DNA of 64,000 nucleotides. Source: Pseudomonadota bacterium. Its GTDB lineage: Bacteria; Pseudomonadota; Alphaproteobacteria; Rhodobacterales; Rhodobacteraceae. Position numbers and translations under genes: made by a program. The stretch spans positions 13,945 to 77,944 of the forward strand of contig JBCBHM010000007.1 of assembly GCA_038525585.1 (NCBI GenBank), given 5' to 3'. The notes below the pieces were generated by a model that worked only from the letters and a program-made list of their open reading frames with translations, was not told where the DNA came from and did no database searches. Shown one piece after another: positions 5,493 to 62,811 of this stretch (the first letter of the stretch is position 1; each line of letters opens with the position of its first letter).

Positions 5493-5525
5493 TCCGAGCC
5501 ACTCCATTTTTTTTGCACATTCTAT

Positions 5526-5557
5526 GGAACCAATGCCGGGCTGGCGCATTTAGTTCC
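5526..5557. promoter_or_regulatory. Overlapping divergent EcfG-like promoters for nepR-ecfG (+) and phyR (-), CATT variant of the -10
   Basis: + strand: GGAAC(5526-5530)-N16-CATT(5547-5550). - strand: GGAAC (complement of 5553-5557)-N17-CATT (complement of 5532-5535). The two motifs occupy the same 32 bp. Confidence 0.45.
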
Positions 5558-45761: not shown

Positions 45762-45799
45762 GGGGGCGGCTCACTTGCAAAAGACGGTCATTAATGATT

Positions 45800-45815
45800 T
45801 TATGTGCACACATAA
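45800..45815. promoter_or_regulatory. Perfect 7-2-7 inverted repeat in the hutI/hutF divergent intergenic region (candidate HutC operator)
   Basis: TTATGTG ca CACATAA. It lies in the 78-bp gap between divergent hutI and hutF. GntR/HutC-type regulators bind short GT...AC palindromes. Confidence 0.4.
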
Positions 45816-45839
45816 TAACCTGTCAAGCGGAGTGCTTGT

Positions 45840-47204
45840 ATGCAGACGATCTGGGCGGAAACGGCGCTGCTGCCCGCGGGTTGGGCGGCGCAGGTTCGGG
45901 TCAGCGTCGACACCGAAGGCCGCATCAGAACCGTAGAGCAAGACGCGCCCCCGAATGGGATCTGCGTGCAGTTGCTGTTACCGGCGCCGGTCAACGCCCA
46001 CAGTCATGCGTTTCAACGCGCCATGGCTGGCCTGACGGAGGCGCGCGGACCAAACGCGAGGGACAGTTTCTGGACATGGCGGCAGTTGATGTTCCGCTTC
46101 CTCGACCGTCTGACCCCCGAGCATATCGAGGCCATCACCGCGTTCGTGCAGATGGAGATGTTGGAGGCGGGCTACGGCGCGTCCGTCGAATTTCATTACC
46201 TCCACCATCAGCCCGGCGGTGCGCCCTACGATGACGTTGCCGAGATGTCGGCGCGTATCCTGTCCGCGTCCGCGCAGACGGGGATGGGCCTTTGCCTGCT
46301 GCCGGTGCACTATCAATTCGGCGGTTGTGACGGACGCACCCTGGGACCGGGACAAATCCGGTTCGGCAACACCTTCGAGGCCTTTCAGACGCTGCATCAA
46401 TCTGCTGCCAAATATGTTAAAGATGCCGCTGCGGACGCGCGCATTGGCGCCGCACCTCATTCGCTGCGGGCGGTCGGGGTGGACGATCTCAGGGCGTACA
46501 CCACCGCATTTCCATCCGGCCCGATCCACATGCATCTGGCCGAACAGCGGGACGAGGTGGCGGAGGTTGAGGCCCAATGGGGTAAAGGGCCCGTGACATG
46601 GGCCCTCGAACACATGGGGCTCGATGACCGCTGGAGCTTGATCCATTGCACACAGATGACACCGCGCGAGACCGTTGCGCTCGCGCAGACCGGTGCCGTC
46701 GCCGGCCTGTGCCCGATCACCGAAAGCAGCCTGGGCGACGGCATCTTTGACGGGGTGCGATGGTTGGAGGCGGGCGGCAGCATAGCGATCGGGTCGGACA
46801 GCAACATCCGCATTGCGCTGGCCGAGGAAGTGCGCACGCTGGAATATTCCCAGCGCCTGCGCGACGGCACGCGGGCGGCCCTCGCCCTGCCCGACATGTC
46901 GACCGGGCGGCGGCTGTTCGACGCCATCGTTCGCGGCGGGGCGCAGGCCGCGGGCCGCCAGACGGGACGGATCGAAGCGGGGTGCTGGGCGGATCTCATG
47001 GCGCTCGATACGACGTCGGAGCATCTGTGGGGTCGCGAGCGTGATACCGCGCTGGACAGCTGGATTTTTGCGGGCGATGACCGATTGGTGACAGACGTGT
47101 GGTCCGCCGGGCGTCACATGGTATCAGAGGGTCGGCACCGACTGCGTCAGCAGATCGTTGCGGCCTACACACGCACGCTAGACGCCTTGAGAGACGCCCT
47201 ATGA
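45840..47204 (+). CDS. hutF: Formimidoylglutamate deiminase
   Basis: 454 aa amidohydrolase (LLLPAPVNAHSHAFQRAMAG...HMHLAEQ). Its co-occurrence with hutG defines the five-step Hut route. Confidence 0.85.
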   Translation: MQTIWAETALLPAGWAAQVRVSVDTEGRIRTVEQDAPPNGICVQLLLPAPVNAHSHAFQRAMAGLTEARGPNARDSFWTWRQLMFRFLDRLTPEHIEAITAFVQMEMLEAGYGASVEFHYLHHQPGGAPYDDVAEMSARILSASAQTGMGLCLLPVHYQFGGCDGRTLGPGQIRFGNTFEAFQTLHQSAAKYVKDAAADARIGAAPHSLRAVGVDDLRAYTTAFPSGPIHMHLAEQRDEVAEVEAQWGKGPVTWALEHMGLDDRWSLIHCTQMTPRETVALAQTGAVAGLCPITESSLGDGIFDGVRWLEAGGSIAIGSDSNIRIALAEEVRTLEYSQRLRDGTRAALALPDMSTGRRLFDAIVRGGAQAAGRQTGRIEAGCWADLMALDTTSEHLWGRERDTALDSWIFAGDDRLVTDVWSAGRHMVSEGRHRLRQQIVAAYTRTLDALRDAL

Positions 47205-47902
47205 ACAGCCCAACCTTTCGCAACTGGCAAAGCGTGCAGGACGAAGTGCTGCGCCGTATCCACGCCCGCGAATGGGCCCCCGGAGAGCTGATCCCGAACG
47301 AGGCCGACCTGGCGCAGGAGTTCGGCTGCGCCAGGTCGACCGTCAACCGCGCCCTGCGCGCGCTCGCAGCAAATGGCCTGCTGGATCGCAGGCGCAAGGC
47401 GGGCACACGGGTTGCCGCGGAACCTGTGGCGAAGGCAACGCTCGACATCGCGCTCTTGCGCCATGAAGTGGAGGAGAAGGGCGCCACATATGGCTACCAC
47501 CTGATCGAGCGCACCCTTGCCGTGCCGCCGGTCAGCGTCAGCGCGGCCATGAAGACGCGGATACAGGACGCGCTCCTGCACATCCGCGCGCTGCATTTGT
47601 CCGACGCGGCCCCCTATGCTTTCGAAGACAGGTGGATCAACATTGACCAGGTGTTGGATGCGCGGGCGGAAACATTTCAGAGCGTGAGCGCGAACGAATG
47701 GCTTTTGAAACACGCGCCATACACCCATGGCGACATCGCGTTTTCGGCCGTTCAGGCCACGCCGGACCAAGCGCGCATTCTGGCGGTGCCCAACAACAGC
47801 GCCCTCTTTGCGATTGACCGGATCACATGGGATGACGCGCACTCCGTCACCAAGGTCAGGCTCGTCTTCGCACCGGGATACCAGCTTCGGACTAGCGTGT
47901 GA
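47201..47902 (+). CDS. hutC: Histidine utilisation repressor, GntR/HutC family
   Basis: Winged HTH (LIPNEADLAQEFGCARSTVNRALRALAANGLL) plus a UTRA effector domain. ATGA overlap with hutF (internal Met of track ORF 47099-47902). Confidence 0.85.
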   Translation: MNSPTFRNWQSVQDEVLRRIHAREWAPGELIPNEADLAQEFGCARSTVNRALRALAANGLLDRRRKAGTRVAAEPVAKATLDIALLRHEVEEKGATYGYHLIERTLAVPPVSVSAAMKTRIQDALLHIRALHLSDAAPYAFEDRWINIDQVLDARAETFQSVSANEWLLKHAPYTHGDIAFSAVQATPDQARILAVPNNSALFAIDRITWDDAHSVTKVRLVFAPGYQLRTSV

Positions 47903-48153: not shown

Positions 48154-48351
48154 TCATACTGCCGCGCGGGCGCCGCCACGGGGGCCAGCGATGAGCCAGA
48201 CGATAAAACCGATGACCGGCAGGATCAGGACAAGCAGGACCCACAGCACTTTGCTGCCGGTGCCCGCGCCCGAACCGATGATGGACACGATGGCCCAGAT
48301 GTTGAGGATGAGGAGGATCAGACCGCCGATGCCGGCAACTTCGATACCCAT
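48154..48351 (-). CDS. PLDc_N-domain small membrane protein
   Basis: MGIEVAGIGGLILLILNIWAIVSIIGSGAGTGSKVLWVLLVLILPVIGFIVWLIAGPR is the typical cardiolipin-synthase-N-like mini-protein. Confidence 0.7.
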   Translation of the reverse strand: MGIEVAGIGGLILLILNIWAIVSIIGSGAGTGSKVLWVLLVLILPVIGFIVWLIAGPRGGARAAV

Positions 48352-48375
48352 GATGTAGTCTCCTTTCGGTGGTGG

Positions 48376-48588
48376 TTATGCGGCTTCGATTTCGGAGCCG
48401 CTCTTGAGGACGCGATCACCATCATCCTGTTCGATGAGGTAGGCGGGATCGTCGTCAGTGGCATTGCGGGTGACATCCGTGCCCTTGATCGTCTTGGTCA
48501 CCTTGTCCGTGTAAATCTGCTTGATCGTGCCCGTGGCGGTGCCATCGCCCCAAGCCCAGCTCACGCTATCGCCGATCGACAGGTTCAT
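48376..48588 (-). CDS. DUF2945 (hypervirulence-associated Tudor-like) protein
   Basis: GDSVSWAWGDGTATGTIKQIYTDKVTKTIKGTDVTRNATDDDPAYLIEQDDGDRVLKSGSEI matches the DUF2945 pattern. Confidence 0.75.
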   Translation of the reverse strand: MNLSIGDSVSWAWGDGTATGTIKQIYTDKVTKTIKGTDVTRNATDDDPAYLIEQDDGDRVLKSGSEIEAA

Positions 48589-48845
48589 GACCCGCTCCGT
48601 TGGGCGCGCAACGCCTCGATCAACTCGTCCTTGGTCATGGAGGAGCGGCCGTCGATGTCACGCTCTTGCGCGAGATCATAGAGGTCGTCTTTGGTCCGGT
48701 CCTCATAGGCCGACCCGTCATGGTCGACATCGTCGCTGGCCTGAGCGTTGGCAATGCGCGCGGCGACCTCTTTGGAATAGCCGTCCTCGCGCATGGCGTC
48801 ATAGGCCTCTTCGTCCTTGATGCTGGGGCGGGTGTCACCGTCCAT
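48585..48845 (-). CDS. Rho_N (SAP-like) domain small protein
   Basis: SIKDEEAYDAMREDGYSKEVAARIANA...DDLYDLAQERDIDGRSSMTKDELIEAL. GGAG lies 9 nt before the ATG at 48845. ATGA overlap with the DUF2945 gene. Confidence 0.6.
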   Translation of the reverse strand: MDGDTRPSIKDEEAYDAMREDGYSKEVAARIANAQASDDVDHDGSAYEDRTKDDLYDLAQERDIDGRSSMTKDELIEALRAQRSGS

Positions 48846-48876
48846 GTCGCAATCTCCATCGTGTTTACGAATTGGA

Positions 48877-48901
48877 AACGCGAGGGATCGTGAAAGGTTC
48901 C
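48877..48901 (-). promoter_or_regulatory. EcfG-type promoter motif for the Rho_N/DUF2945/PLDc_N operon
   Basis: Reverse strand reads GGAAC ctttcacgatccctcg CGTT, with the -10 element 31 nt upstream of the ATG at 48845. Confidence 0.65.
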
Positions 48902-48905
48902 GCAA

Positions 48906-49553
48906 TCAGGGGGCAAAACAGCGCTCCAACGCCTTGACCTCGTCCGCGGGCACGACAAACAGCACGTGGCCGCAGCCCTTGAGCGTGCTGTCGTCGCGGG
49001 GCAGCGTTTCGTCCTCACCATCAATCAGCGCAATGGGCCGCGTGTCCTTGGGCAGATCCAGCTCTGCCAGCGTCTTGCCATCCATCGCCGCGGGCACCTC
49101 GACGCGTTTGAGGCGCAGGGCGCCGGACAGGTTGAGGTCTTCGGTCACCTCGGTGTCTTCCTCCAGCGCGCGGCACAGGGATTTGGCGACGGTGGCGTGA
49201 GGTGTGATGGTGTCGTTCAGCTCAAGCTCGGCACAGACCTCGAGCAGTTCGGGCGAAATGATCTGCGGGATCACCCTGCTGAAACCGACGGAGCGGGCCA
49301 CAAGGGCTGTCAGAATGTTGTCGTCCGAGGCGTTGGTGAGCGCGATGAGCAGGTCATTGTCGCCGCGATGCGCCTCACGCAGCACCGAAGGGGAGGAGCC
49401 GTCGCCCTCGATCAATCCGCAATCAAGCTGCTCGCTGAGCCGTTCCAGCTTGGCCCGGTCCTTGTCGATCAGCACGACCTCGTGGCCGTGATCGATCATC
49501 TGCTCGGCGGTGGCGACCCCGAATTTGGAGCCGCCGACGATGACGATGCGCAT
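48906..49553 (-). CDS. trkA: Trk/Ktr potassium uptake system, RCK (NAD-binding) subunit
   Basis: MRIVIVGGSKFGVATAEQMIDHGHEVVLIDKD Rossmann motif plus a TrkA_C-like C-terminal domain. 215 aa. Confidence 0.8.
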   Translation of the reverse strand: MRIVIVGGSKFGVATAEQMIDHGHEVVLIDKDRAKLERLSEQLDCGLIEGDGSSPSVLREAHRGDNDLLIALTNASDDNILTALVARSVGFSRVIPQIISPELLEVCAELELNDTITPHATVAKSLCRALEEDTEVTEDLNLSGALRLKRVEVPAAMDGKTLAELDLPKDTRPIALIDGEDETLPRDDSTLKGCGHVLFVVPADEVKALERCFAP

Positions 49554-49556
49554 GTG

Positions 49557-51026
49557 TTATCCTTTCTGCGTGTGAGGGCGGGTCCAGGTTCCGGGCAGGA
49601 TCAGGACCAGCACTGCAATGAACTCCAGCCGCCCAAGCCACATAGCCAGCGTCAGCATGAGCTGCGCGCCCGGCGGCAGATCGGGGCCGATGACGCCGGT
49701 CGACAGGCCCACGGTCGACAGCGCCGAGATGGCGTCAAAAAGAGCGGGCAGGGCCGGGTGGCCGAGCGAGACGAGCACAGCCCAAACCGTGCCAGCGGTG
49801 GCGAGGTACAGCATCAGCAGACCCACGAGCGACACCAGCAGCGTGTCCTTGACCGGGGCCCCGCGATGGCGCAGCGGGCTGACCGCGCGGTCGGGCAAAC
49901 GGGGCAGGGTCAGGGCATGCCGGATGGCGCGGGTCAGGATGCTGAACCGCCACAGCTTGAGCCCCCCGGCGGTCGATCCGCGGTCGCCACCGATCAGCAT
50001 CGCGACGATGAAAACCACCAGCAGGGCAGGGGTCACCGGCATGGCGCCGGTGGCAAAGCCCGCGGTGGAAAAGGCGCTGAGCAGGTTGAGCAGCGTGGGC
50101 AGAAAGGGCTCGTCGCTGCCTGCGATCAGTCGGGCGAGCGCAAGAACGGCGGCGCAGGCCAATGTCATCAGCGCCACACGCCGCACCGAGGGCGATGCCC
50201 AGATCGGTGTGCCGCCGCGGCGCACGGCTTGCGCAAAAGCCAAAAGCGATATGGCACCGGCAACGCAGGCCAAGATCACGAGGCATTGCACGAGGGCGGT
50301 GTAGCTGGCCAGGCTGTCGGACCGGGGCGCAAAGCCCCCGGTTGAGATGGCGGAAAGGGCCAGCACGAGGCCTTCGGCCGCATTGCCGAGCGTCAGGGCG
50401 ATGAGCGCGGCAAAGAGCGCGGTGAGCAACACATAGGCCCCCAGCAATTCGCGGGCCTGCGTTCGGGCCGATTGGATGCGGTTTCGGTCGTCGATCCCCG
50501 CCTTGCCGATGGTGCGCGCGGCGGGGCCCGGGCCCAGCACAAGGGCTAGCACCGCCGTGGCCATGGCCAGCCCGCCGCACCATTGCATCCACGATCGCAG
50601 GACATGAGCGGCAAAGGGCCAGCTGTCGGGATCACGGGCCATCGACAGACCCGTTGTGGTGATCGCACTCATCCCCTCGAACAGCGCCGCTGCAATCGGC
50701 AGCCCAAGCCACATGAAGGCGGGAACGGAAAAGACAGCGGCCAGCAGGAACAGGAGCGCAATGGACACCATCGCCTCGACCCCGCGCAGATCGTCGGGCA
50801 GCGCGTGCCGCCACACGGCGAGTGAGGCCAGAAGGCCAATCCCGATGGGTAAGGCGAGCGCCAGCGCAAGCGGCATCGCACCTTCGGCCATCGCCCAGAT
50901 CAGCGGCGGACCAAAGAGCAGGGCGGCGAGGGGGCCGTGCTTGGCGATGACCAGCCCCACTGTCCCAAGCCGCGCCTGCTGCAGCAGCGTGTCGGCACCG
51001 TTACCGGCGCTGCGAAACTGCGCCAC
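49557..51026 (-). CDS. trkH: TrkH/KtrB-family potassium transporter
   Basis: Polytopic membrane protein with repeated MPM-like units (TTTGLSM, ISTGGFA, FSTAGFA, STVGLSTG selectivity-filter glycines). I prefer the GTG at 51026, just after the mscS stop; the track ATG at 51056 overlaps mscS. Confidence 0.8.
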   Translation of the reverse strand: MAQFRSAGNGADTLLQQARLGTVGLVIAKHGPLAALLFGPPLIWAMAEGAMPLALALALPIGIGLLASLAVWRHALPDDLRGVEAMVSIALLFLLAAVFSVPAFMWLGLPIAAALFEGMSAITTTGLSMARDPDSWPFAAHVLRSWMQWCGGLAMATAVLALVLGPGPAARTIGKAGIDDRNRIQSARTQARELLGAYVLLTALFAALIALTLGNAAEGLVLALSAISTGGFAPRSDSLASYTALVQCLVILACVAGAISLLAFAQAVRRGGTPIWASPSVRRVALMTLACAAVLALARLIAGSDEPFLPTLLNLLSAFSTAGFATGAMPVTPALLVVFIVAMLIGGDRGSTAGGLKLWRFSILTRAIRHALTLPRLPDRAVSPLRHRGAPVKDTLLVSLVGLLMLYLATAGTVWAVLVSLGHPALPALFDAISALSTVGLSTGVIGPDLPPGAQLMLTLAMWLGRLEFIAVLVLILPGTWTRPHTQKG

Positions 51027-51030
51027 CTGC

Positions 51031-51930
51031 CTATTCCGCGGCCTCGGACACGGCACGCACAGGCAGCGGGCCGTTCACGGTGAGGGTGCGATAGGGGAAC
51101 GGGATCTCGATCCCGGCATCGTCGAGGGCGCGTTTGATGGCGGCCACAACCTTGTCGCGGCTCGCGCGGATGTCCACCGGTTCGGACCCGGTCCACCACG
51201 TCACTTCGAAGTCAATGGAACTGGCGCCGAATGACTTGGCAAATACCTGGATGTCGCGCACGTCGTCACGCACCATATCCACGGCGCGGGTCGCTTCGGC
51301 GATCACGTCGCGGGCGGCGTCAACGTCTTCTCCATACGCCACGCCGACCATAATCGCAGTGCGGCGGTAGGCCTTGTCGGTGCGGACAGTGACAGCGTTG
51401 TGGAACAGTTGCGCATTCGGAACGACAACCAGTTGACCGTCAGTCTGACGAATATGGGTGTCACGAATGGTGATTGCCTCGACCTTGCCTTCGGCGCCAT
51501 CGCATTCGACGTGGTCGCCGATCTGGAAGGGCTCGCGCAGCAGGATCAACAGACCCGCCAGAAAGTTTTCGAACGTATCCTTGAACGCAAAACCGATTGC
51601 GACGGAACCAAGCCCGAGCGTGGTCAGCGCGCGTCCGGGGGTGATGGTCGGGAACACAACGGTGAGCGCAACAAGTATCCCCGCCAGCCAAACGACAACC
51701 CCGGTCAAGAGGCGCAGTACGTCGATCAGGTTGCGCCGCAGACCCGCGCGGCGGCCCAGGCGGGTGATGATTGCCTTGATCGCCCAGACAAGCAGGGCAG
51801 TGACCAGAATGACAAGAATGGCGATGCCGAGGCGCGGCAGGGCGGCGATGCCCGCACTGACCCAGCCCGAAAGCTGTTCGATAAGCGGGGCAGTGACGGT
51901 GTCGGGCATGATCTGTTCGAGCTGTTCCAT
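51031..51930 (-). CDS. mscS: Small-conductance mechanosensitive channel family protein
   Basis: Three N-terminal TMs, then the MscS beta-domain PFQIGDHVECDGAEGKVEAITIRDTHIRQTDGQLVVVPNAQLF. Confidence 0.85.
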   Translation of the reverse strand: MEQLEQIMPDTVTAPLIEQLSGWVSAGIAALPRLGIAILVILVTALLVWAIKAIITRLGRRAGLRRNLIDVLRLLTGVVVWLAGILVALTVVFPTITPGRALTTLGLGSVAIGFAFKDTFENFLAGLLILLREPFQIGDHVECDGAEGKVEAITIRDTHIRQTDGQLVVVPNAQLFHNAVTVRTDKAYRRTAIMVGVAYGEDVDAARDVIAEATRAVDMVRDDVRDIQVFAKSFGASSIDFEVTWWTGSEPVDIRASRDKVVAAIKRALDDAGIEIPFPYRTLTVNGPLPVRAVSEAAE

Positions 51931-51938
51931 GACGGCGC

Positions 51939-51963
51939 AACGCGTGGTCGTGGGGATCGTTCC
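51939..51963 (-). promoter_or_regulatory. EcfG-type promoter motif for mscS(-trkH-trkA); probably gives a leaderless or near-leaderless mRNA
   Basis: Reverse strand reads GGAAC gatccccacgaccacg CGTT gcgccgtc ATG. Only 8 nt separate the -10 element from the mscS ATG. Confidence 0.6.
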
Positions 51964-51969
51964 ATGGGT

Positions 51970-51995
51970 GGAACGAAAGCCAGCCTCTTTGCGTT
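51970..51995 (+). promoter_or_regulatory. EcfG-type promoter motif for the FNT-family channel gene
   Basis: GGAAC gaaagccagcctctttg CGTT (N17). Its -35 lies 6 nt from the -35 of the divergent mscS promoter (GTTCC atgggt GGAAC). Confidence 0.65.
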
Positions 51996-52037
51996 GGTCC
52001 TTAAATTGTGCGCTCGCGCACGACAGCGGAGACTCAC

Positions 52038-52877
52038 ATGTCCAATAGCACCACTGGATCGCGCCCTGGCGACCTGACCGACGATCAGACCGAGGCCAAA
52101 GCGGTTGAGAATGTGGCCCCGCTGTCGCCTAAGCTGATTTTCGAAGCGATCCGCCGTAATGGTGAGGAAGAGCTGGAGCGCCCCGACCGCGCGCTGTGGT
52201 TTTCGGGGATTGCCGCAGGCATCCTGATCTCGTTTTCGGTGCTGGGCGAGGCGCTCTTGCGATCCGCGCTCCCCGACACCGACTGGCGCTATATCGTGGA
52301 AAACATGGGCTACACTCTGGGCTTCATGCTCGTGATCCTTGGCCGGATGCAGCTGTTTACCGAAAACACGATCACGACAGTCGCCCCGGTATTGGTCAAG
52401 CGGACACGCGCCTGTCTAGTCCGCACGGTGCAATTGTGGACGATTGTTCTTGCCGCAAATGTGGTGGGCGCGTTCGCAGTGGCTGCGTTCTTTGCCTACG
52501 GGCCCGTTCTGTCGCCCGAGGTCGCCGCGGCCTTTACCGAGCTCAGCCGCCACGCCACTGGCATGCCACCGATGGAGGGGTTGATGCGCGGCATTCCGGC
52601 GGGTGTGCTGATTGCGGCGCTGGTATGGATGATGCCCACGGCCAACGGCAACGCGGTTGCGCTGATCTTTCTGTTTACCTGGCTGATTGCCCTTGGTGAC
52701 TTTACCCACATCGTCGCAGGCTCGGTGGAAATGGCGTATTTGATGGTGCAGGGCGATCTGGCGCTGACACAAGCCGTCTTTGGCTTTTTCCTTCCCGTGC
52801 TGACCGGCAATGTCATTGGCGGCACCGTGATCTTCACCCTGTTGGCGTGGGCCCAGATCCAGCCCGAAGTGGAGTGA
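52038..52877 (+). CDS. Formate/nitrite transporter (FNT) family channel protein
   Basis: ALWFSGIAAGILISFSVLGE...GFMLVILGRMQLFTENTIT...ALGDFTHIVAGSVE is an FNT-like six-TM pattern. I chose the ATG at 52038 because the putative TSS lies at or beyond the track start at 52008. Confidence 0.7.
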   Translation: MSNSTTGSRPGDLTDDQTEAKAVENVAPLSPKLIFEAIRRNGEEELERPDRALWFSGIAAGILISFSVLGEALLRSALPDTDWRYIVENMGYTLGFMLVILGRMQLFTENTITTVAPVLVKRTRACLVRTVQLWTIVLAANVVGAFAVAAFFAYGPVLSPEVAAAFTELSRHATGMPPMEGLMRGIPAGVLIAALVWMMPTANGNAVALIFLFTWLIALGDFTHIVAGSVEMAYLMVQGDLALTQAVFGFFLPVLTGNVIGGTVIFTLLAWAQIQPEVE

Positions 52878-52884
52878 CAAAAAA

Positions 52885-52920
52885 CGCCGCGTACCCAGTG
52901 CGGGGCGCGGCGCTTTTGTT
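52885..52920. terminator. Bidirectional hairpin terminator between the FNT gene and a convergent small gene
   Basis: aaaaaa cgccgcg ...loop... cgcggcg cttttgtt. An A-tract precedes the stem and a T-tract follows it. Confidence 0.5.
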
Positions 52921-52936
52921 GCATCTAATGTCGCGC

Positions 52937-53086
52937 TCAGTGGTCAGGCGCGTCCTTTGCCAAAGTCGATTTTTCGGCGTTTGGATCTTCCATCTTCTTC
53001 TCGGTGGCGCGTTTGCTTGCCAGGGCCCAAATGACAACCGCCGCAGCGGTCAAGCCAAACAGAATGGGCAGGATCGAGATGTCCAT
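52937..53086 (-). CDS. Small single-TM membrane protein (49 aa), hypothetical
   Basis: Manual translation gives MDISILPILFGLTAAAVVIWALASKRATEKKMEDPNAEKSTLAKDAPDH. It lies 12 nt downstream of the preceding small gene and is below the ORF-track size cut-off. Confidence 0.4.
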   Translation of the reverse strand: MDISILPILFGLTAAAVVIWALASKRATEKKMEDPNAEKSTLAKDAPDH

Positions 53087-53098
53087 GATTGTTCTCCT

Positions 53099-53269
53099 TT
53101 ATTCAGAAGCCGCGGTGGGCACGGTTGCATTGGTGGCGTCATCGTCAGGCGCCACCGGCGCCATGAAAAAGATGAAGCCGACAACAGCCAAAACGACAAA
53201 CCCCATTCCCAGAAGGGCGGGGTAGTGGCGGCGTTGCTGCTTTTCGATATTCGTGTCGGGTGCGGTCAT
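53099..53269 (-). CDS. Small single-TM membrane protein (56 aa), hypothetical
   Basis: MTAPDTNIEKQQRRHYPALLGMGFVVLAVVGFIFFMAPVAPDDDATNATVPTAASE. RBS aaaggag precedes the ATG at 53269. This is the 3' part of the 195-aa track ORF. Confidence 0.5.
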   Translation of the reverse strand: MTAPDTNIEKQQRRHYPALLGMGFVVLAVVGFIFFMAPVAPDDDATNATVPTAASE

Positions 53270-53302
53270 GATCACACTCCTTTCTTTCCAGTCTGAAATA
53301 GA

Positions 53303-53327
53303 AACGCAGGGCGCTGCAATTCGTTCC
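53303..53327 (-). promoter_or_regulatory. EcfG-type promoter motif for the two small membrane-protein genes
   Basis: Reverse strand reads GGAAC gaattgcagcgccctg CGTT, with the -10 element 33 nt upstream of the ATG at 53269. Confidence 0.65.
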
Positions 53328-53364
53328 GCGCAGCCCCCGGGGCAACATTTTTTCGCGGCGATCT

Positions 53365-53389
53365 GGAACCTTTGTCGCACCCAGCCGTT
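53365..53389 (+). promoter_or_regulatory. EcfG-type promoter motif for the secreted PRC-barrel protein gene
   Basis: GGAAC ctttgtcgcacccagc CGTT, with the -10 element 58 nt upstream of the ATG at 53448. Confidence 0.65.
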
Positions 53390-53447
53390 CCTCTGACACA
53401 TCGCGGCACACGTGCCGCAACATTCTGAACTTACTGGAGGAATCACT

Positions 53448-53945
53448 ATGAAACGCATTTTTGCGTCTGTTCTCGCTTTGACTGTTGCCACGCCGGCCCT
53501 CGCTGGTTCGACCGGCTCGGAAGAAGCCAAAGTGCCCGCCATGAACGCAGCATCCGAAGAAGCGCCCGCCACGGATCGCCCCATCGTGATGGACGACAGC
53601 TGGGACGTCGAAGACCTTGCCACATTCGACGCGCCACAGGTGTCGCGCGAAGGTTGGGTTGCTGCCGATACGGCCGAGATGACCACCGAAGAGATGACCG
53701 GCCTGCGCGTTTACAGCGCCAATGACGAATGGATCGGCGAGATCGACAACCTGATCGTCAATGGCGAAGGCGAAATTCAGGGCGCCGTGCTGGGTGTCGG
53801 CGGTTTTGTCGGTATCGGCGAAAAGGACGTGCTGGTCAGCTTTGACAGCCTGACGATCAAGACCGAGACCGACGGCGAAGACATGCGCGCCTATGCGAAC
53901 ATGACCGAAGAGCAGCTGGAAGCGCTGCCCGCCTACGAATCGTAA
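53448..53945 (+). CDS. Secreted PRC-barrel domain protein
   Basis: Signal peptide MKRIFASVLALTVATPALA and an acidic linker, then the PRC barrel GLRVYSANDEWIGEIDNLIVNGEGEIQGAVLGVGGFVGIGEKDVLVSF. RBS ggagg. Confidence 0.75.
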   Translation: MKRIFASVLALTVATPALAGSTGSEEAKVPAMNAASEEAPATDRPIVMDDSWDVEDLATFDAPQVSREGWVAADTAEMTTEEMTGLRVYSANDEWIGEIDNLIVNGEGEIQGAVLGVGGFVGIGEKDVLVSFDSLTIKTETDGEDMRAYANMTEEQLEALPAYES

Positions 53946-54013
53946 ACACATCGAAGGTTGGATTGTCCCCCGACCTTCCATGCGCCGGATCACCTCCTCG
54001 TTGATCCGGCAGT

Positions 54014-54056
54014 GACGCGCCGCCTTTCCCCAAAAGGCGGCGCGTCTTTCGCTTTT
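54014..54056 (+). terminator. Rho-independent terminator after the PRC-barrel gene
   Basis: gacgcgccgcc tttccccaaaa ggcggcgcgtc followed by tttcgctttt. Confidence 0.7.
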
Positions 54057-54076
54057 GTCCGACGGAGACCTTGCCC

Positions 54077-55438
54077 ATGACCGACCGTAACCTGACCGAA
54101 GGACCCGTATGGAGGGCATTGATGGCTGTGTCGGCCCCGATGACGTTCGGGGTGCTGGCCGTCGTGAGCGTCGGGCTCGCGGATGCGTATTTCCTGGGCC
54201 AGCTGGGTGCGGCTCCGCTGGCGGCGGTCGGGTTTGTCTACCCGGTGACGGCGGCGATCACGTCGCTGGCCATCGGGCTGTCTGCGGGCGCAAATGCGGT
54301 GATCTCGCAGGCCTTGGGCCTGGATGCCGGGCGCGAGGCCGTGCAGCGGCTTGCATTGCATGCGACGGGCCTGGGCGTTCTGCTGGCGCTGATCGTCGCG
54401 GTGGCCTTTGCCTTTGGCGCCGAAGGCATCTTTGGCCTGATGGGCGCAGGGGACGCCGCCCTGACCGAGGCGATGGCCTTTGCACCCGTCTGGGCCATAT
54501 CCTTTCCGTTCCTCGTGGGTTCCATGGCGCTGAATGCCGTGTTTCGCGCACATGGGGATGGGGCCGCGTCGGCGGCGATCATGATACTGTCGGCGGTCTT
54601 TGCCATTGGTCTGAACCCGGTGCTGATCTTTGGCTGGGGTCCGCTCGACGGCATGGGCACCGCCGGGGCGGCGACGGCCACGCTGATCGGTCGTGTCGTG
54701 GCAGTGGTCGCTGCCGTCATCTATGCGGTGCGGCGCGGATATCTGTCGATCTGCCTGTCGCCCTTGCAAGGTCTTTGGGGTTCGGTGAAGGAGGTTGTGC
54801 TCGTGGGCGCGCCGGCCGCCTTTTCCAATGCGATCAATCCTGCGGGTATGGCGCTGGTGACGGCTGCGGTTGCCACGCTGGGCGAGGCTGCCGTGGCCGG
54901 GTTTGGGGCAGCCACCCGTGTGCAGACTGTGGCGCTTGTCCCGTTGCTTGCCCTGTCGGCCGGTATCGGTCCGGTGGTGGGTCAGAACTGGGGGGCCGAG
55001 ATGCAGGATCGCGCACGCAGTGCCGTCGCGGTCGCCTGGGCGCTGTGCCTGGGCTACGGTCTTGCCGTCGGGGCTGCACTTGCGATCTGGGCGGAACCCA
55101 TCGCGTCGCTCTTTGCGGATGAGGGCGGAGAGGCGTTGCCCTATGCAACCGACTACCTGCGCATCGTCGGTTGGAGCCTGTTTGGCTACGGCATGCTGGT
55201 GACGGCGAACGCGGCGATGAACGCACGGTCAAGGCCGCTCTATTCCATGGGTTTGGGCCTGGGGCGGATCAGCCTGATCTACGTGCCCGGCGCGTGGCTT
55301 GGGGTCGTGACCTTTGGCTATTCCGGGATTTTGGGGGCGGCTGTCGCAGCCAACGTGTTGACGGTGGCTGCCGCGCTCTGGTGCCTGTCGCGCACCGACT
55401 TGAAGCCGCGCCCACCGGCGCAATTGGCTATCGCCTAA
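54077..55438 (+). CDS. MATE-family efflux transporter
   Basis: About 453 aa, 12 TM. The N-terminus LTEGPVWRALMAVSAPMTFGVLAVVSVGLADAYFLGQLG is typical of NorM/DinF-type MATE proteins. Confidence 0.85.
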   Translation: MTDRNLTEGPVWRALMAVSAPMTFGVLAVVSVGLADAYFLGQLGAAPLAAVGFVYPVTAAITSLAIGLSAGANAVISQALGLDAGREAVQRLALHATGLGVLLALIVAVAFAFGAEGIFGLMGAGDAALTEAMAFAPVWAISFPFLVGSMALNAVFRAHGDGAASAAIMILSAVFAIGLNPVLIFGWGPLDGMGTAGAATATLIGRVVAVVAAVIYAVRRGYLSICLSPLQGLWGSVKEVVLVGAPAAFSNAINPAGMALVTAAVATLGEAAVAGFGAATRVQTVALVPLLALSAGIGPVVGQNWGAEMQDRARSAVAVAWALCLGYGLAVGAALAIWAEPIASLFADEGGEALPYATDYLRIVGWSLFGYGMLVTANAAMNARSRPLYSMGLGLGRISLIYVPGAWLGVVTFGYSGILGAAVAANVLTVAAALWCLSRTDLKPRPPAQLAIA

Positions 55439-56397
55439 CCGAGAAAGCGCAGCAGCGCCGCCTCACCCTGGCGCAGCTCGGTCGGGCCGTCGTCATCGAG
55501 TGTGGCCACCCGGGCCGCGCCCCCATCCGCCAAGGCGATGACGTCAGGGTGGATGTAGCTGGCGCGGGCAATGGTCGGCGTGTTGTGCAACCGCTCTGCG
55601 GTGGCCTCGGCCATATCCTTGATCCGAACGGCACCGCCAAGGCTGCGCGCGACGCGGAACGCGGCCAATGTGCCGGCCCATGTGCGCAGGCTCTTGGGGG
55701 TGACGCCGTCGCCTGCCACATCGCCCAGCACGTCCGACAGGTGCTCGGCCCTCAGCGGCACCATCTCGCCGCCCTCGCCCCGATAGTCAAACAGCCGTGG
55801 GCCCGGCAGATCGGCCGACCGATGCAGAACATGCGCCAGCCGCGCGCCGGTAAGCTGTTTGGCGACCTCGGTGCCGCCCTTGGCGGTGTAATGCAGCGCG
55901 ATGCGCGCGCCATCGGTGCTCAGGTGCCGATCCTCGAGGGTGAGCGCGCCGTAGCTGCCATTGTCCTCCGTATAGGCCAGATCGCCGGGCCGCATCGCCC
56001 CCCTGTCGATCAGTGCGAGCACAGCGGCAATCGCAGTGCTCTGCTCACCCGCGGCGCCGCCAAGGTTTTGCGTGATCCAACGGCGCAGCCGAGGCAAGGC
56101 GTGGCCCACTTCCGCCAGCGTGTCGAATTTGGTCCGGTCACGGGCAGCGGTCCAATCGGGGTGATAGCGGTACTGCTTGCGCCCCCGCGCATCGCGACCG
56201 GTCGCCAGCAGATGCGCGTTGGGCATCGGCGCCATCCACACGTCGCGATAGGCCGGTGGAACGGCGAGGGCCGCAAGGCGATCCCGCTCGGCCCGGTCGG
56301 TGATCCGCGTGCCATCCGGCGCGAGGTAGGAAAAGCCGCGACCCTGCGCCCGGCGCAGAATGCCGGGGTTGTTGTCGGGATAGTAGATTAGGGGCAT
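55435..56397 (-). CDS. DNA topoisomerase IB (bacterial, poxvirus-like)
   Basis: 320 aa: MPLIYYPDNNPGILRRAQGRGFSYLAPDG...ATGRDARGRKQYRYHPDW...LHYTAKGG...PKSLRTWAGT...TPTIARASYIHPDV, with the catalytic Tyr in SYIHP. The 713-aa track ORF is an upstream overrun. Confidence 0.85.
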   Translation of the reverse strand: MPLIYYPDNNPGILRRAQGRGFSYLAPDGTRITDRAERDRLAALAVPPAYRDVWMAPMPNAHLLATGRDARGRKQYRYHPDWTAARDRTKFDTLAEVGHALPRLRRWITQNLGGAAGEQSTAIAAVLALIDRGAMRPGDLAYTEDNGSYGALTLEDRHLSTDGARIALHYTAKGGTEVAKQLTGARLAHVLHRSADLPGPRLFDYRGEGGEMVPLRAEHLSDVLGDVAGDGVTPKSLRTWAGTLAAFRVARSLGGAVRIKDMAEATAERLHNTPTIARASYIHPDVIALADGGAARVATLDDDGPTELRQGEAALLRFLG

Positions 56398-56422
56398 GAC
56401 ACGGTCCTGTGAATGATCTGCA

Positions 56423-56448
56423 AACGCGAAACGGGGCCGCTGGGTTCC
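56423..56448 (-). promoter_or_regulatory. EcfG-type promoter motif for topoisomerase IB
   Basis: Reverse strand reads GGAAC ccagcggccccgtttcg CGTT (N17), with the -10 element 25 nt upstream of the ATG at 56397. Confidence 0.6.
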
Positions 56449-56456
56449 CGTCTCGC

Positions 56457-56482
56457 GGAACCCGGGCCTCACGTGGCGCGTT
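56457..56482 (+). promoter_or_regulatory. EcfG-type promoter motif for the cytoplasmic PRC-barrel protein gene
   Basis: GGAAC ccgggcctcacgtggcg CGTT (N17). Back-to-back with the topIB promoter (GTTCC cgtctcgc GGAAC). Confidence 0.65.
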
Positions 56483-56520
56483 GACGTCTCAGCACTTGGA
56501 TGTAGCCCAGGAGGACCATC

Positions 56521-57174
56521 ATGACCCACGCTTTCAATCGTATGCGCACCGCCACGCTCACCACCGAAGGAGAGCGGACGGCGACCATCAACGATCTGTG
56601 GTTTGATGAGGATACCGGGGCGGTGCACCATATCCGCGTCGATCTGGGTGGATGGCTGACCTCGGATGAGGCGCTGATCGGAGTGCGCCATCTTGCCGCG
56701 CCGGAGACGGCGGACGGTGCCTGGGATCTGGACATGACGCAAACGCAACTCGACGCCGCCCCGCGCTGGCCCGATGCCGCGCAGACGGCGATGGCGGATT
56801 GGCCGCCCATCATCATCGGGCCGTTCGGCAATGCGCTGTCGTTGCCGCTGGTCGGGGCTCAGTTGACCGCGGCGCGCGGTCCATCTGAGACGGGCGACGG
56901 CGCTGCACCGCGCCTGACGCAGGCTTTGTCCAGCGCAACCGAGTTCCTGTCGCAACCGGTCTTTGCCCGCGATGGAGAGCTGGGGACAGTCGAAGACGTC
57001 TGGGTCGATTGCGATGCGTGGTCGGTGCATGCGCTCGATGTGTCGACAGATGATCCATCCAAGCCCGTACGCGTCCCATATTCCGCACTGCGCCACCGCG
57101 GGTCGGAGGCGGGCCATATCGTGATCGCAGGTGTTCGCGCTGATTATTCGGACATTCACAAGCAGGCGTCGTAG
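56521..57174 (+). CDS. PRC-barrel domain protein (two barrel-like halves)
   Basis: INDLWFDEDTGAVHHIRVDLGGWLTSDEALIGV and VFARDGELGTVEDVWVDCDAWSVHALDV are PRC-barrel-like. RBS aggagg. Confidence 0.65.
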   Translation: MTHAFNRMRTATLTTEGERTATINDLWFDEDTGAVHHIRVDLGGWLTSDEALIGVRHLAAPETADGAWDLDMTQTQLDAAPRWPDAAQTAMADWPPIIIGPFGNALSLPLVGAQLTAARGPSETGDGAAPRLTQALSSATEFLSQPVFARDGELGTVEDVWVDCDAWSVHALDVSTDDPSKPVRVPYSALRHRGSEAGHIVIAGVRADYSDIHKQAS

Positions 57175-57194
57175 GCCCCACGTTACGGATGATT

Positions 57195-57219
57195 GGAACA
57201 TTGCGGCGGCTTGGGCGTT
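57195..57219 (+). promoter_or_regulatory. EcfG-type promoter motif for the amidoligase-amidotransferase operon (near-leaderless)
   Basis: GGAAC attgcggcggcttggg CGTT gctaaccgg ATG. There are 9 nt between the -10 element and the ATG at 57229. Confidence 0.6.
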
Positions 57220-57228
57220 GCTAACCGG

Positions 57229-58179
57229 ATGGAACACGCCTCCGATACAACCACGCCTGCCTTTCCGCCGCTGCCGCGGCAGGACACCTCCGACGGTGCT
57301 CCGAGGCGTGTAGGCGTGGAAGTGGAATTCGCCGGACTGGACCTGTCGCAGACAGCCGAAGTGATCGTCAGCACGCTGGGCGGCACGGTTGGACTGGCCG
57401 AAGATCATGCTTTTAGTGTGACCGATACGTCCCTCGGCGACATCACCGTCGAATTGGATACAGCCCTCACCAAGCTGGGTGAGGGCGTTGCAATGGATGC
57501 CGTCCTGGATGTTGCGCGTCAGGTCGTTCCGGTGGAAATCGTGACAGAGCCGCTCGCGCCCGATGCGCTGCCCCATCTCGACACACTGATGTCTGCACTA
57601 CGACAGGCTGGTGCGCGCGGTTCGCGCGACGGCTTGGTCTACGGCTTTGGCGTGCATCTGAATGTGGAGATCACCGGGCGCGATGATGCGTTTGTCGGCG
57701 AGACCGTGCGCGCCTACGGGCTGCTGGAGCATATCTTGCGCGCGGACATGCAGATCGACAATACGCGGCGCGTTCTGCCCTTTGTGCAGCCTTGGCCCGA
57801 CGGCTTGGTGGCTGATCTGCTTGTCGAAGACGCGCTGGACCTCGCGAAACTCATGACGATCTATGCCCGCCATACGCAATCGCGCAATCACGGGCTGGAC
57901 CTGTTGCCTTTGCTCAAATGGGCAGCACCGGAACAGTTTGATCGTCACTTTCCAAGTGTCAAAAGCGCTGCCCGCCCCGCCTTTCACTTCCGCCTACCCG
58001 AATCCCGGATTGATGAGCCGGACTGGTCTCTCGCCCAAGCATGGGCGCAGTGGTTGCAGGTGGAACGGCTGGCGGATGATCCGACTCTGCTGCGCGCGAT
58101 GGCAGAGGCATGGCACCGCTCGGACCGGACAAAGGCGCTGCGCGCCGTCCTCGAAACCAAAGGAAACGACGATGTTTGA
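57229..58179 (+). CDS. Amidoligase_2-family (glutamine-synthetase-fold) putative amidoligase
   Basis: RVGVEVEFAGLDLSQTAEVIVSTLGG...VPVEIVTEPL...YGFGVHLNVE resembles the putative amidoligase family. 8-nt overlap with the downstream amidotransferase gene. Confidence 0.6.
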   Translation: MEHASDTTTPAFPPLPRQDTSDGAPRRVGVEVEFAGLDLSQTAEVIVSTLGGTVGLAEDHAFSVTDTSLGDITVELDTALTKLGEGVAMDAVLDVARQVVPVEIVTEPLAPDALPHLDTLMSALRQAGARGSRDGLVYGFGVHLNVEITGRDDAFVGETVRAYGLLEHILRADMQIDNTRRVLPFVQPWPDGLVADLLVEDALDLAKLMTIYARHTQSRNHGLDLLPLLKWAAPEQFDRHFPSVKSAARPAFHFRLPESRIDEPDWSLAQAWAQWLQVERLADDPTLLRAMAEAWHRSDRTKALRAVLETKGNDDV

Positions 58180-58900
58180 CCGCCGAGACCGCCCACTGAT
58201 CGGTGTGACCACCTCGGCCCGTTCTGGCTGGCGCATCTTCCCGCTGGTTGCCCTCAATCTCTGGGCGGTGGGTGCGCGGGCTGTGCGGTGGGGCACGGGT
58301 CGGCCGCATGACCTGGATCTCGTGGATGGGATCATCATTGGCGGTGGCGACGATATCTCGCCCGACCTGTATGGCGGCGAAATGGGCGTGAGCGTGCGGC
58401 TCGACCCCGCCCGTGACGCGTTCGAGCGTGATCTGGCATGCGCCGCTTTCGAACGTGGTATCCCTGTTCTGGGCATTTGCCGCGGGGCGCAGATGTTGAA
58501 CATCGCTCTGGGCGGAGCGCTGGATCAGAACGCCTGGGCCACATATCCCGAGATGAAGCCGATCAAGACCGTCCTGCCGCGACGCCACATCCGGCCCGTG
58601 GCGGGCAGTCGCCTGGCGCGGATCGTGGGCCCGGAGGAAATGAAGGTAAACGCGCTGCACACCCAGGCCGTCAGCAAGTTGGGCCGCGGCCTGAACGTCG
58701 CTGCCCGCGACCTGGGCGGCATGGTGCAGGCGGTCGAACGGGTCGAAGATCCGTTTGCCCTTGGCGTGCAGTGGCACCCCGAGCATCTGATCTACGCGCG
58801 ACGGCAGCGGGCGATCTTTGGCGCGCTGGCGGGTGCCGCCCGGGCCCGACGCGAGAATACGCAGCAAGTGCGTGCAGCTGTATTACAGGTTGCGGAATGA
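58172..58900 (+). CDS. Class I glutamine amidotransferase / gamma-glutamyl hydrolase (peptidase C26) family
   Basis: PLIGVTT...IIIGGGDDISPDLYG...RDAFERDL...PVLGICRGAQMLNIALGG...VQWHPE is the Cys-His-Glu triad context. Start at MFDRRD (58172); the track ORF from 57863 is an overrun. Confidence 0.8.
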   Translation: MFDRRDRPLIGVTTSARSGWRIFPLVALNLWAVGARAVRWGTGRPHDLDLVDGIIIGGGDDISPDLYGGEMGVSVRLDPARDAFERDLACAAFERGIPVLGICRGAQMLNIALGGALDQNAWATYPEMKPIKTVLPRRHIRPVAGSRLARIVGPEEMKVNALHTQAVSKLGRGLNVAARDLGGMVQAVERVEDPFALGVQWHPEHLIYARRQRAIFGALAGAARARRENTQQVRAAVLQVAE

Positions 58901-59394: not shown

Positions 59395-60267
59395 CTACGG
59401 CAATAACCCCTTTAGGTAAGCGCCGTATTGCGTTTTGGCGAACAGCGCCGCGCGTGCTGCCAGTTCATCCGCGCTGATCCATCCCAACTCATAGGCGATC
59501 TCTTCGGGGCAACCGACCTGCTGTCCCTGTCGGTCGCTGAGCGTGCGCACAAAGTTACCGGCATCCAGCAGTGAACCATGCGTACCCGTGTCGAGCCAGG
59601 CATAGCCGCGTCCCATTTGCTGTACGTTCAGCTGCCCATCCGCCAGATACATCTCGAGCAGCGAGGTGATCTCCAATTCGCCCCGTTCTGAGGGTCGGAC
59701 AGCCGCCGCCCGCTCCGGCGCCGTACCGTCGAGGAAATACAACCCCGTCACCGCATAGTTCGAAGGCGGCACCGGCGGCTTTTCCACGATCGCCCTAGCT
59801 GCGCCATCGGGCGCGAAATCCACCACGCCGTAGCGCTCGGGATCCGCAACGCGGTAGCCAAAGACGGTGCCGCCCGTCTCGACCGCATCCGCGCTGGCCA
59901 GCCGTTCGGGCAGGCCGTGGCCGAAAAAGATGTTGTCGCCCAGCACCATGGCCGAAGGGGCGCCATCCAAGAAATCACTGGCCAGCAGATAGGCTTGCGC
60001 CAGCCCGTCGGGTGAGGGCTGCTCGACATATGTCAGCGAAAGCCCCCATTGCGCCCCGTCACCCAGCGTGCGCTGGAACTGTGCCTGGTCCTGGGGCGTA
60101 GTGATCACGCATATCTCGCGAATGCCCGCGAGCATCAGCACCGACAGCGGATAGTAGATCATCGGCTTGTCGTAGATCGGCAGAAGCTGTTTCGACACGC
60201 CCATCGTGATTGGGTACAGCCGTGTGCCCGAACCCCCTGCCAGAATGATGCCTTTGCGTTTCGTCAT
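59395..60267 (-). CDS. rfbA: Glucose-1-phosphate thymidylyltransferase
   Basis: [52 protein letters not shown] is canonical RmlA. 290 aa. Confidence 0.95.
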   Translation of the reverse strand: MTKRKGIILAGGSGTRLYPITMGVSKQLLPIYDKPMIYYPLSVLMLAGIREICVITTPQDQAQFQRTLGDGAQWGLSLTYVEQPSPDGLAQAYLLASDFLDGAPSAMVLGDNIFFGHGLPERLASADAVETGGTVFGYRVADPERYGVVDFAPDGAARAIVEKPPVPPSNYAVTGLYFLDGTAPERAAAVRPSERGELEITSLLEMYLADGQLNVQQMGRGYAWLDTGTHGSLLDAGNFVRTLSDRQGQQVGCPEEIAYELGWISADELAARAALFAKTQYGAYLKGLLP

Positions 60268-62703: not shown

Positions 62704-62811
62704 CAGCGGGGCGCTTACCTTGCGAGCTATGATATGCGGTGGCACGCACGCGGCGTCCGCCCTTTGTCCTAAGGTACACAGGGATTTGTGTAAATGATGC
62801 TGCGCTTAGAG

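Follow-up and report, generated by a model that had tools for sequence, protein, structure and literature searches.

What does it mean when promoters of one stress response crowd together in a single stretch of a bacterial chromosome? We address this question for a sequence of 64,000 nucleotides (the window) from a marine, Tateyamaria-like bacterium of the Rhodobacteraceae (GenBank assembly GCA_038525585.1, contig JBCBHM010000007.1). The window encodes PhyR, a NepR-like protein and EcfG, the regulators of the alphaproteobacterial general stress response (GSR), and an island of about 10 kb (48154-58900) in which short intergenic regions repeatedly carry the motif GGAAC-N16/17-CGTT. An earlier reading of the DNA by eye (the original prediction) had taken this motif to be the published consensus for EcfG, a sigma factor of the extracytoplasmic function (ECF) type, and three papers bear this out (PMC7083833, PMC6599016, PMC5869019). 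Our analysis of the sequence makes it highly likely that most of the eight sites in the island are EcfG-dependent promoters.

The EcfG-type motif in the window

We searched both strands of the window for exact matches to GGAAC-N16/17-CGTT and found eleven. All had been listed originally, eight in the island and three near the regulatory genes, with the same coordinates and strands, and there is no further match in the window, so the scan by eye proved exhaustive for the exact motif. The eleven sites are given below, each with the gap between its -10 box and the start codon where it belongs to the island (P1 to P8).

734-758 (-): predicted orphan EcfG promoter, back-to-back with the next site, 10 bp between the -35 boxes
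769-793 (+): predicted EcfG promoter for a DUF1328/UPF0391 gene (825-989), conserved in related locus L001
4051-4076 (+): predicted EcfG promoter for dps, overlapping the stop codon of the upstream TPP-enzyme gene
48877-48901 (-): P1, predicted EcfG promoter for DUF7218/Rho_N, Hva1_TUDOR and PLDc_N genes; gap 31 nt, GGAG before the ATG
51939-51963 (-): P2, predicted EcfG promoter for mscS, trkH and trkA; gap 8 nt from CGTT to ATG, no Shine-Dalgarno sequence
51970-51995 (+): P3, predicted EcfG promoter for a formate/nitrite transporter family (FNT) channel; gap 42 nt
53303-53327 (-): P4, predicted EcfG promoter for a 56-aa and then a 49-aa membrane protein; gap 33 nt
53365-53389 (+): P5, predicted EcfG promoter for PRC-barrel protein 1; gap 58 nt, GGAGG
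56423-56448 (-): P6, predicted EcfG promoter for topoisomerase IB (TopIB); gap 25 nt
56457-56482 (+): P7, predicted EcfG promoter for a double PRC-barrel protein; gap 38 nt
57195-57219 (+): P8, predicted EcfG promoter for Amidoligase_2 and Peptidase_C26/GATase genes; gap 9 nt, no Shine-Dalgarno sequence

Both the number and the placement of these sites depart from chance. Across 100 dinucleotide-preserving shuffles of the window the exact motif occurred 1.06 times on average, close to the single chance match estimated originally, with a maximum of four; none of the shuffles reached eleven. Ten of the sites lie entirely in non-coding DNA, which makes up 19% of the window (P ~1e-8 for random placement), and the remaining one, 4051-4076, straddles a stop codon. 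Of this non-coding DNA, just 751 nt belong to the island and carry its eight sites, and no exact site occurs in the 10.8 kb that lie beyond the two motif-bearing blocks. Within the window, then, the motif is not equally frequent in coding or in unrelated intergenic DNA. Ten of the eleven sites also point at a conserved start codon 8-58 nt downstream, the range that had been claimed for the island sites. Versions of the motif with one mismatch (spacers of 15-18 nt) are common, with 76 in the window, 45 of them inside genes.

The placement of the sites rests on a map of open reading frames (ORFs) supported by GC3 and by Pfam matches. A public contig of 7 kb (L059) is identical to part of the island, and its independent gene calls agree with the map. 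The exact TopIB protein is on record solely on a 7-kb Logan contig, SRR22824309.

Conservation of the sites in related genomes

Two samples of related loci, numbered with the prefix L, stand in for a genome-wide scan. The first is anchored on TopIB and comprises 58 genomic loci, 51 from Alphaproteobacteria and seven from other bacteria. The second is anchored on phyR; 80 metagenomic loci were fetched, of which the 45 of at least 9 kb were used (756 kb in total). Genes of the comparison loci were called approximately, and the metagenomic loci are not phylogenetically independent. The closest genome in the TopIB-anchored sample is that of Tateyamaria sp. 1078, whose TopIB is 85% identical.

The two promoter boxes persist in the orthologous intergenic DNA of L001, L002, L003 and L027, as do the Shine-Dalgarno sequence and the ATG, whereas the spacers and leaders have diverged. 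P1 shows this in L001 and L003, where its boxes are retained around a diverged spacer. A five-way alignment at P4 is conserved only in GGAAC, the -10 region, AGGAG and the ATG; the invariant -10 column of this gapped alignment is a single T of CGTT, and every orthologue has an exact GGAAC-N16/17-CGTT.

The same holds over a wider range of taxa. Upstream of TopIB the exact motif is found in 20 of the 51 alphaproteobacterial loci and a one-mismatch version, mostly ending in GGTT or TGTT, in 21 of the 51, mostly 20-30 nt before TopIB or before an Hva1-TopIB gene pair. Neither version was found upstream of TopIB in any of the seven loci from outside the Alphaproteobacteria. Over 960 kb of alphaproteobacterial loci the density of the motif is 0.23 per kb in non-coding DNA compared with 0.037 per kb in coding DNA. 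Moreover, positions that the search left free show the bias of published logos: the base before CGTT is G in 71% of cases against a background of 31%, the base after GGAAC is C in 51%, and the next two positions are A/T-rich. This is strong sequence evidence, and the sites are very probably genuine promoters.

Comparison with characterized EcfG regulons

Experimentally studied regulons provide precedents for several of the predicted targets. The genes for topoisomerase IB and a PRC-barrel protein are EcfG-dependent in Sphingomonas melonis Fr1, with the motif 24-27 nt upstream (PMC6599016). The direct regulon of Sphingopyxis granuli TFA, which consists of 79 units, includes a topoisomerase-mscS operon, a UPF0391 (DUF1328) gene whose EcfG promoter resembles that of DUF1328 in the window, and a gene for a PRC-type 'reaction center subunit H' (PMC7083833). 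Motif and spacing are common to the window and these two regulons, with GGAAC-N16/17-(G)CGTT no further than about 100 bp from the start codon and, in some cases, a very short distance between -10 box and coding sequence. TopIB, MscS, PRC-barrel and UPF0391/DUF1328 genes are targets there and predicted targets here, and phyR and nepR-ecfG, autoregulated there, have predicted autoregulatory promoters in the window. Unlike them, the island, which is a prediction from the sequence of a roseobacter host, adds Trk, FNT, the amidoligase/GATase pair and two small membrane proteins.

If the sites act as predicted, the established partner-switch model would connect them as follows. Stress would cause the kinase to phosphorylate PhyR, phospho-PhyR would capture NepR, and the EcfG thereby released would act at once on the eight island promoters and on the promoters that precede DUF1328, dps, phyR and nepR-ecfG. 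The resulting package would serve ion and osmotic homeostasis through MscS, TrkH/TrkA and the FNT channel; topoisomerase IB, and Dps from the other block, would act in DNA topology and protection. The island would also supply small stress proteins, namely DUF7218/Rho_N, Hva1_TUDOR, PLDc_N, both tiny membrane proteins and the two PRC-barrel proteins, as well as the amidoligase/amidotransferase pair. The analysis shows the sequence features, how they are conserved and which regulators are encoded; from these we infer transcription from the sites, dependence on the EcfG encoded in the window, the start sites, the leaderless mRNAs discussed below and the physiological roles.

Several points weigh against this interpretation. 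No experimental EcfG precedent came to light for FNT or TrkH/TrkA, for the amidoligase-GATase pair or for either tiny membrane protein. The role of PhyR in Rhodobacter sphaeroides was limited according to a 2018 paper, which also states that PhyR had been analysed in no member of the Rhodobacterales before; a GSR study of the roseobacter group was not found in the literature searched. The site at 734-758(-) has no credible gene in front of it, only an ORF of 11-14 codons whose sequence is not conserved. Finally, EcfG paralogues or an ECF sigma factor of similar specificity may be encoded outside the window.

Alternative explanations

The last of these points leads to the alternative that survives best, namely that the promoters are real and respond to another regulator, either an EcfG paralogue or a different ECF sigma factor whose gene lies outside the window, or a dimeric transcription factor that binds the symmetrical GGAAC...GTTCC. 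Many Alphaproteobacteria, S. granuli among them, have several EcfG paralogues with overlapping specificity, and GGAAC is a common -35 element of ECF promoters. However, the CGTT -10 box combined with a spacer of 16-17 nt is the published signature of EcfG, and strict strand orientation and a fixed distance to the ATG favour a promoter over an operator. Autoregulation of phyR and nepR-ecfG through this motif is predicted in 45 of 45 related loci, and the gene families agree with experimentally defined EcfG regulons. We consider another regulator improbable. As the analysis is confined to the window, it is nevertheless the only alternative that keeps appreciable weight.

It is similarly improbable, to a slightly greater degree, that the 48-59 kb cluster is a mobile 'stress island' recently imported by horizontal transfer. 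The absence of mscS-trkHA, both PRC genes and the amidoligase pair from L001, and the reshuffled order of the cassettes in L003, L027 and L068, would fit such an origin. However, the GC content of the island (0.59-0.68) resembles that of flanking core genes, and no integrase, transposase, tRNA or flanking repeat was found at the island. In several genera the cassettes stand beside phyR, and this speaks for vertical persistence accompanied by local rearrangement. The DNA that does look mobile is not the island; it lies between the two blocks, at 9.5-40.5 kb.

The remaining two explanations have negligible probability. The sites might be copies of a dispersed repeat (REP- or MITE-like, or a duplicated promoter cassette), as several are near-palindromic (GGAACG...CGTTCC) and lie in inverted pairs, but a repeat search found no family over them, all of their spacers differ, and the only pairing of one site with another, 72% complementary over 25 nt, is the motif itself. 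That they are functionless chance or compositional matches in GC-rich intergenic DNA, as the mere nine fixed bases and the abundance of one-mismatch versions might suggest, is effectively refuted by the shuffled controls, by the lack of exact matches in coding and unrelated non-coding DNA, and by the retention of the boxes across relatives despite diverging spacers, with biased positions flanking them.

Predicted promoters and genes of the island

EcfG-dependent promoters, our preferred interpretation of the sites, would divide the island into eight transcription units with 16 genes, plus one MATE gene. Pfam matches bear out the original gene assignments, with two refinements: DUF2945 has been renamed Hva1_TUDOR, and the Rho_N protein also has a DUF7218 domain. 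The genes are listed here in order along the window, with their operon partners.

48585-48845, 48376-48588 and 48154-48351 (-): DUF7218+Rho_N, Hva1_TUDOR (DUF2945) and PLDc_N operon; Pfam, syntenic in L001 and L003
51031-51930, 49557-51056 and 48906-49553 (-): mscS, trkH and trkA; Pfam, syntenic in L003
52038-52877 (+): FNT channel; Pfam
53099-53269 and 52937-53086 (-): small membrane proteins of 56 aa and 49 aa; gene calls, also in L059
53448-53945 (+): PRC-barrel protein 1; Pfam, N-terminus resembling a signal peptide
54077-55438 (+): MATE efflux gene, left out of the regulon count
55435-56397 (-): bacterial topoisomerase IB; Pfam Top1B_N_bact and Topoisom_I
56521-57174 (+): protein with two PRC-barrel domains; Pfam
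57229-58179 and 58172-58900 (+): Amidoligase_2 and Peptidase_C26-GATase; Pfam and L059 gene calls

The contiguous stress cluster that had been proposed thus stands in that the eight transcription units adjoin one another, but the MATE gene lies inside it, and neither an exact nor a one-mismatch EcfG motif was found for this gene. Synteny of MATE and TopIB is held in L001-L003, L036 and L087. A strong terminator (54014-54046) lies 3' of the gene for PRC-barrel protein 1.

Three divergent pairs take in six of the eight promoters, their -35 boxes separated by 6 bp (P2/P3), 8 bp (P6/P7) and 37 bp (P4/P5); a back-to-back pair corresponding to P6/P7, with the same 8-bp spacing, is present in L001. 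P1 is located in a 60-nt gap after trkA. Similar back-to-back designs recur in the comparison material: 1.9 Mb of loci contain 18 pairs with 1-13 bp between the -35 boxes and just five divergent pairs with gaps of 16-80 bp. Back-to-back pairs are found in the window (758/769, 51963/51970 and 56448/56457) and in L001, L003, L004, L027, L066, L068 and L084.

All leaders of at least 20 nt contain a GGAG-type Shine-Dalgarno sequence before the ATG, whereas the two gaps of 8-9 nt, at P2 and P8, lack one, as would be expected if transcription began immediately past the -10 box. Because the start codon follows so closely on the -10 box and no Shine-Dalgarno sequence is present, the mscS and amidoligase mRNAs are probably leaderless. 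In L003, mscS has the identical 8-nt gap and the same N-terminus, ME(Q/L)(L/I)(E/D)Q, and the amidoligase gap is 8 nt with N-terminal residues kept. The independent gene call in L059 has the same amidoligase start, for a protein of 316 aa. A comparably short gap, of 7 nt, occurs in L027 before a membrane protein of 361 aa.

Motif-preceded FNT genes are present in L001, L003, L004 and L027 as well. The amidoligase-GATase pair is also found beside phyR or TopIB in L003, L027, L065, L068 and L110.

Neither the 56-aa nor the 49-aa membrane protein matches a Pfam or NCBIfam model or a PDB entry. The 49-aa gene is conserved in L001 and L002 and weakly in L110. Proteins of the 56-aa family begin with M(S/T)APDTN(I/L/V)E(K/R)Q..(R/K)H(R/K/Y)P and have one transmembrane helix. 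Members were identified in L001 (12528-12695), L002 (12547-12714), L003 (11210-11377) and L027 (20482-20664), and also in L068 and L084; a small motif-preceded ORF in L004 (4716-4910) shares the N-terminal motif. An exact EcfG motif lies 23-35 nt before the gene in the window, in L001-L004 and in L027, and also in L068 and L084. On this sequence pattern we regard the 56-aa protein as a candidate core small protein of the GSR.

The phyR-nepR-ecfG locus

The regulators themselves are encoded in the first part of the window, together with a kinase gene and two further predicted promoters.

4683-5507 (-): phyR; Pfam PhyR_sigma2 and PhyR_sigma-like at the N-terminal end, with a C-terminal receiver domain
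5526-5550 (+): one-mismatch promoter of nepR-ecfG, GGAAC-N16-CATT, overlapping the phyR promoter
5532-5557 (-): one-mismatch promoter of phyR, GGAAC-N17-CATT, overlapping the nepR-ecfG promoter
5593-5766 (+): nepR-like ORF of 57 aa, divergent from phyR and overlapping ecfG by 8 nt
5759-6310 (+): ecfG, ECF sigma factor; NCBIfam NF009198 above cutoff, PDB 5uxx at 1e-47
6307-8043 (+): HWE/HisKA_2 histidine kinase; HisKA_2 6.5e-22, HWE_HK 6.6e-8

PhyR matches PhyR structures in the PDB with values from 1e-65 to 1e-104; for 3n0r, 4g97 and 4qic they range from 1e-65 to 1e-74. The 57-aa ORF matches no Pfam or NCBIfam model, and its identity is based on its position, its size and the segment ...PSRFTDLLQQL..., which we take to be NepR-like.

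Between phyR and this ORF lies a quasi-palindrome of 32 bp (5526-5557) that contains two fully overlapping sites in opposite orientation, both with CATT as the -10 box. The original list, although complete for the exact motif, missed these two promoters, which are predicted to serve autoregulation of phyR and nepR-ecfG. At the same position, 27 other loci have exact CGTT versions with a 7-bp offset. Because both promoters occupy the same DNA, they should exclude each other. A palindromic EcfG site that works in both directions was hypothesized by Staron et al. (2009), and transcriptomic support has been reported for Erythrobacter litoralis (bioRxiv 10.1101/641647). The sites at 5526-5557 likewise overlap in opposite orientation through the symmetry of GGAAC and GTTCC. 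However, their -10 boxes are CATT, and the divergent pairs of the island are separate promoters with 6-37 bp between the -35 boxes.

The dps ORF spans 4097-4615, and its likely start is at 4115, after AAGGGAGA. L066 and L070 show the same arrangement of the dps promoter, including the common GGAACTCTGA.

An ORF of 121 aa at 288-653(+) resembles a receiver domain by eye only, with ...HLVILAAPH... at the site of the phospho-accepting Asp, and matches no Pfam or NCBIfam model or PDB entry. It is kept beside DUF1328 in L001 (61%) and lies near phyR in L068, L069 and L079. The ORF may be a component associated with the GSR locus, possibly a pseudo-receiver.

A predicted promoter without a gene at 734-758(-)

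The three sites reported around the phyR locus are present, but one of them, 734-758(-), lacks a real downstream gene. An ATG 33 nt downstream and a Shine-Dalgarno sequence before it are both conserved (L001, 19529-19624), and a transcript from this promoter would enter the 3' end of ORF 288-653 in antisense orientation. The equivalent promoter in L065, L083 and L094, divergent from DUF1328, stands before a gene whose product, about 100 aa long, is rich in alanine and charged residues. The conserved Shine-Dalgarno sequence and ATG therefore suggest a remnant promoter of a lost protein gene, which now possibly makes an antisense or short RNA.

We also considered a small RNA (sRNA) of the GsrN type (Tien et al. 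2018, PMC5869019). The site is like those of GsrN sRNAs in being a consensus EcfG site without a protein gene, located 4 kb from phyR-ecfG, and it agrees with two of the three features by which GsrN sRNAs were sought (PMC5869019). Unlike GsrN, it has no sequence similarity, Rfam match, C-rich 5' loop or non-random folding. RNA downstream of the site shows no fold beyond shuffled controls in the window or in L001 (z = +0.87 and +0.34); Rfam yields no family at the gathering threshold in the whole window and nothing meaningful in 1-1100 at E<=5. Given the lack of a stable fold, an Rfam match and a C-rich 5' loop, a GsrN-type sRNA was rejected.

Clustering of EcfG sites near phyR

Is the crowding of EcfG sites in this window exceptional? 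The 45 phyR-anchored Rhodobacterales loci contain 142 exact sites, or 12 per 64 kb compared with about one by chance, and single loci carry as many as nine sites in 9 kb (L084) and eight in 21 kb (L083). Within 10 kb on either side of phyR the density is 0.06-0.42 per kb, 4-25 times the chance level of 0.017 per kb, except in the first 2 kb towards nepR, where nepR-ecfG and the kinase gene take up the space. The families found within this distance, out of 45 loci, are DUF1328 (19), FNT (14), Dps (13), PLDc_N (13), Amidoligase (9), GATase (8), PRC (5), DUF7218 (4) and Hva1 (3). TopIB and other island genes lie less than 10 kb from phyR-nepR-ecfG in L004, L005, L027, L036, L044 and L045. Because dense motif clusters with the same families recur near phyR, the cluster in the window is not peculiar. 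It represents one form of a layout, widespread among these loci, that gathers predicted EcfG targets beside the regulator genes, and belongs to a recombining set of promoter-gene cassettes whose usual place in Rhodobacterales is next to phyR-nepR-ecfG.

This contradicts the original statement that GSR regulons elsewhere are scattered around the chromosome, as does S. granuli TFA. There, promoters at SGRAN_1761, 1762, 1766, 1769, 1770 and 1777 make six units within 17 genes, and those at SGRAN_1797, 1799 and 1800 form a further cluster (PMC7083833). With eight units within 17 genes the island is somewhat denser.

Here the island is displaced from the regulators. In the window they are about 40 kb apart, separated by a segment at 9.5-40.5 kb and a hut operon at 40.5-47.9 kb, whereas in L001 the island lies 4.5 kb from the DUF1328-GDH block, the neighbour of phyR in the window. 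Relative to the island, the phyR block is also oriented differently than in L001, L087 and L095. The GC content of the 9.5-40.5 kb segment falls to 0.456 (at 38-40 kb), and the segment includes fragments of IS3-type transposases (9574-10393 and 14338-14700), three RTX calcium-binding proteins, an ABC-2 exporter, UDP-galactopyranose mutase, glycosyltransferases, three sulfotransferases and a protein with a PAPS-reductase domain. This variable region is likely to be exchanged horizontally, as a locus for adhesins and a sulfated surface polysaccharide.

Directly upstream of the island lies the complete histidine-utilisation (hut) cluster (40569-47902), which comprises hutU, hutG, hutH, a hutI-like gene, hutF and the gene for a GntR/UTRA regulator; downstream of the island, at 59395-62745, is a dTDP-rhamnose operon, rmlA-D-B-C. 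Neither the hut cluster nor the rml operon has EcfG motifs. The rml operon recalls roseobacter biofilm plasmids, and a plasmid origin was considered and rejected; a megablast search of PLSDB with the island gave only a MATE fragment of 76% identity.

We know of no description of regulator-linked clustering of a sigma-factor regulon for the alphaproteobacterial GSR. As a speculative model, which we regard as doubtful, a sizeable share of the GSR in marine Rhodobacterales might form a 'regulon island' tethered to phyR-nepR-ecfG. It would be composed of self-contained promoter-gene cassettes, many with back-to-back EcfG promoter pairs, that lineages gain, lose and reshuffle while selection keeps them close to the regulator, and in this genome it would recently have been split by the IS-bearing polysaccharide/RTX segment. 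Such selection might act because regulator and targets are inherited or transferred together, or because the sigma factor is available locally.

Significance

The motif, the regulators, several of the target families and the palindromic bidirectional site were established previously, and the present findings leave the understanding of how the GSR works unchanged. New, as predictions from sequence, are a roseobacter regulon, some candidate effectors that lack a precedent, two targets with probably leaderless mRNAs and, from the survey, the clustering of targets near phyR. With its 13 promoters for about 22 genes, the window offers a testable regulon prediction for roseobacters. The candidate GSR effectors that we did not find in published regulons are Trk potassium uptake, the FNT channel, the amidoligase/amidotransferase pair and the 56-aa membrane protein, which is preceded by the motif in nearly all loci where it is found. 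If the clustering holds in complete genomes, the neighbourhood of phyR would offer a shortcut to the stress genes of uncultured marine bacteria.

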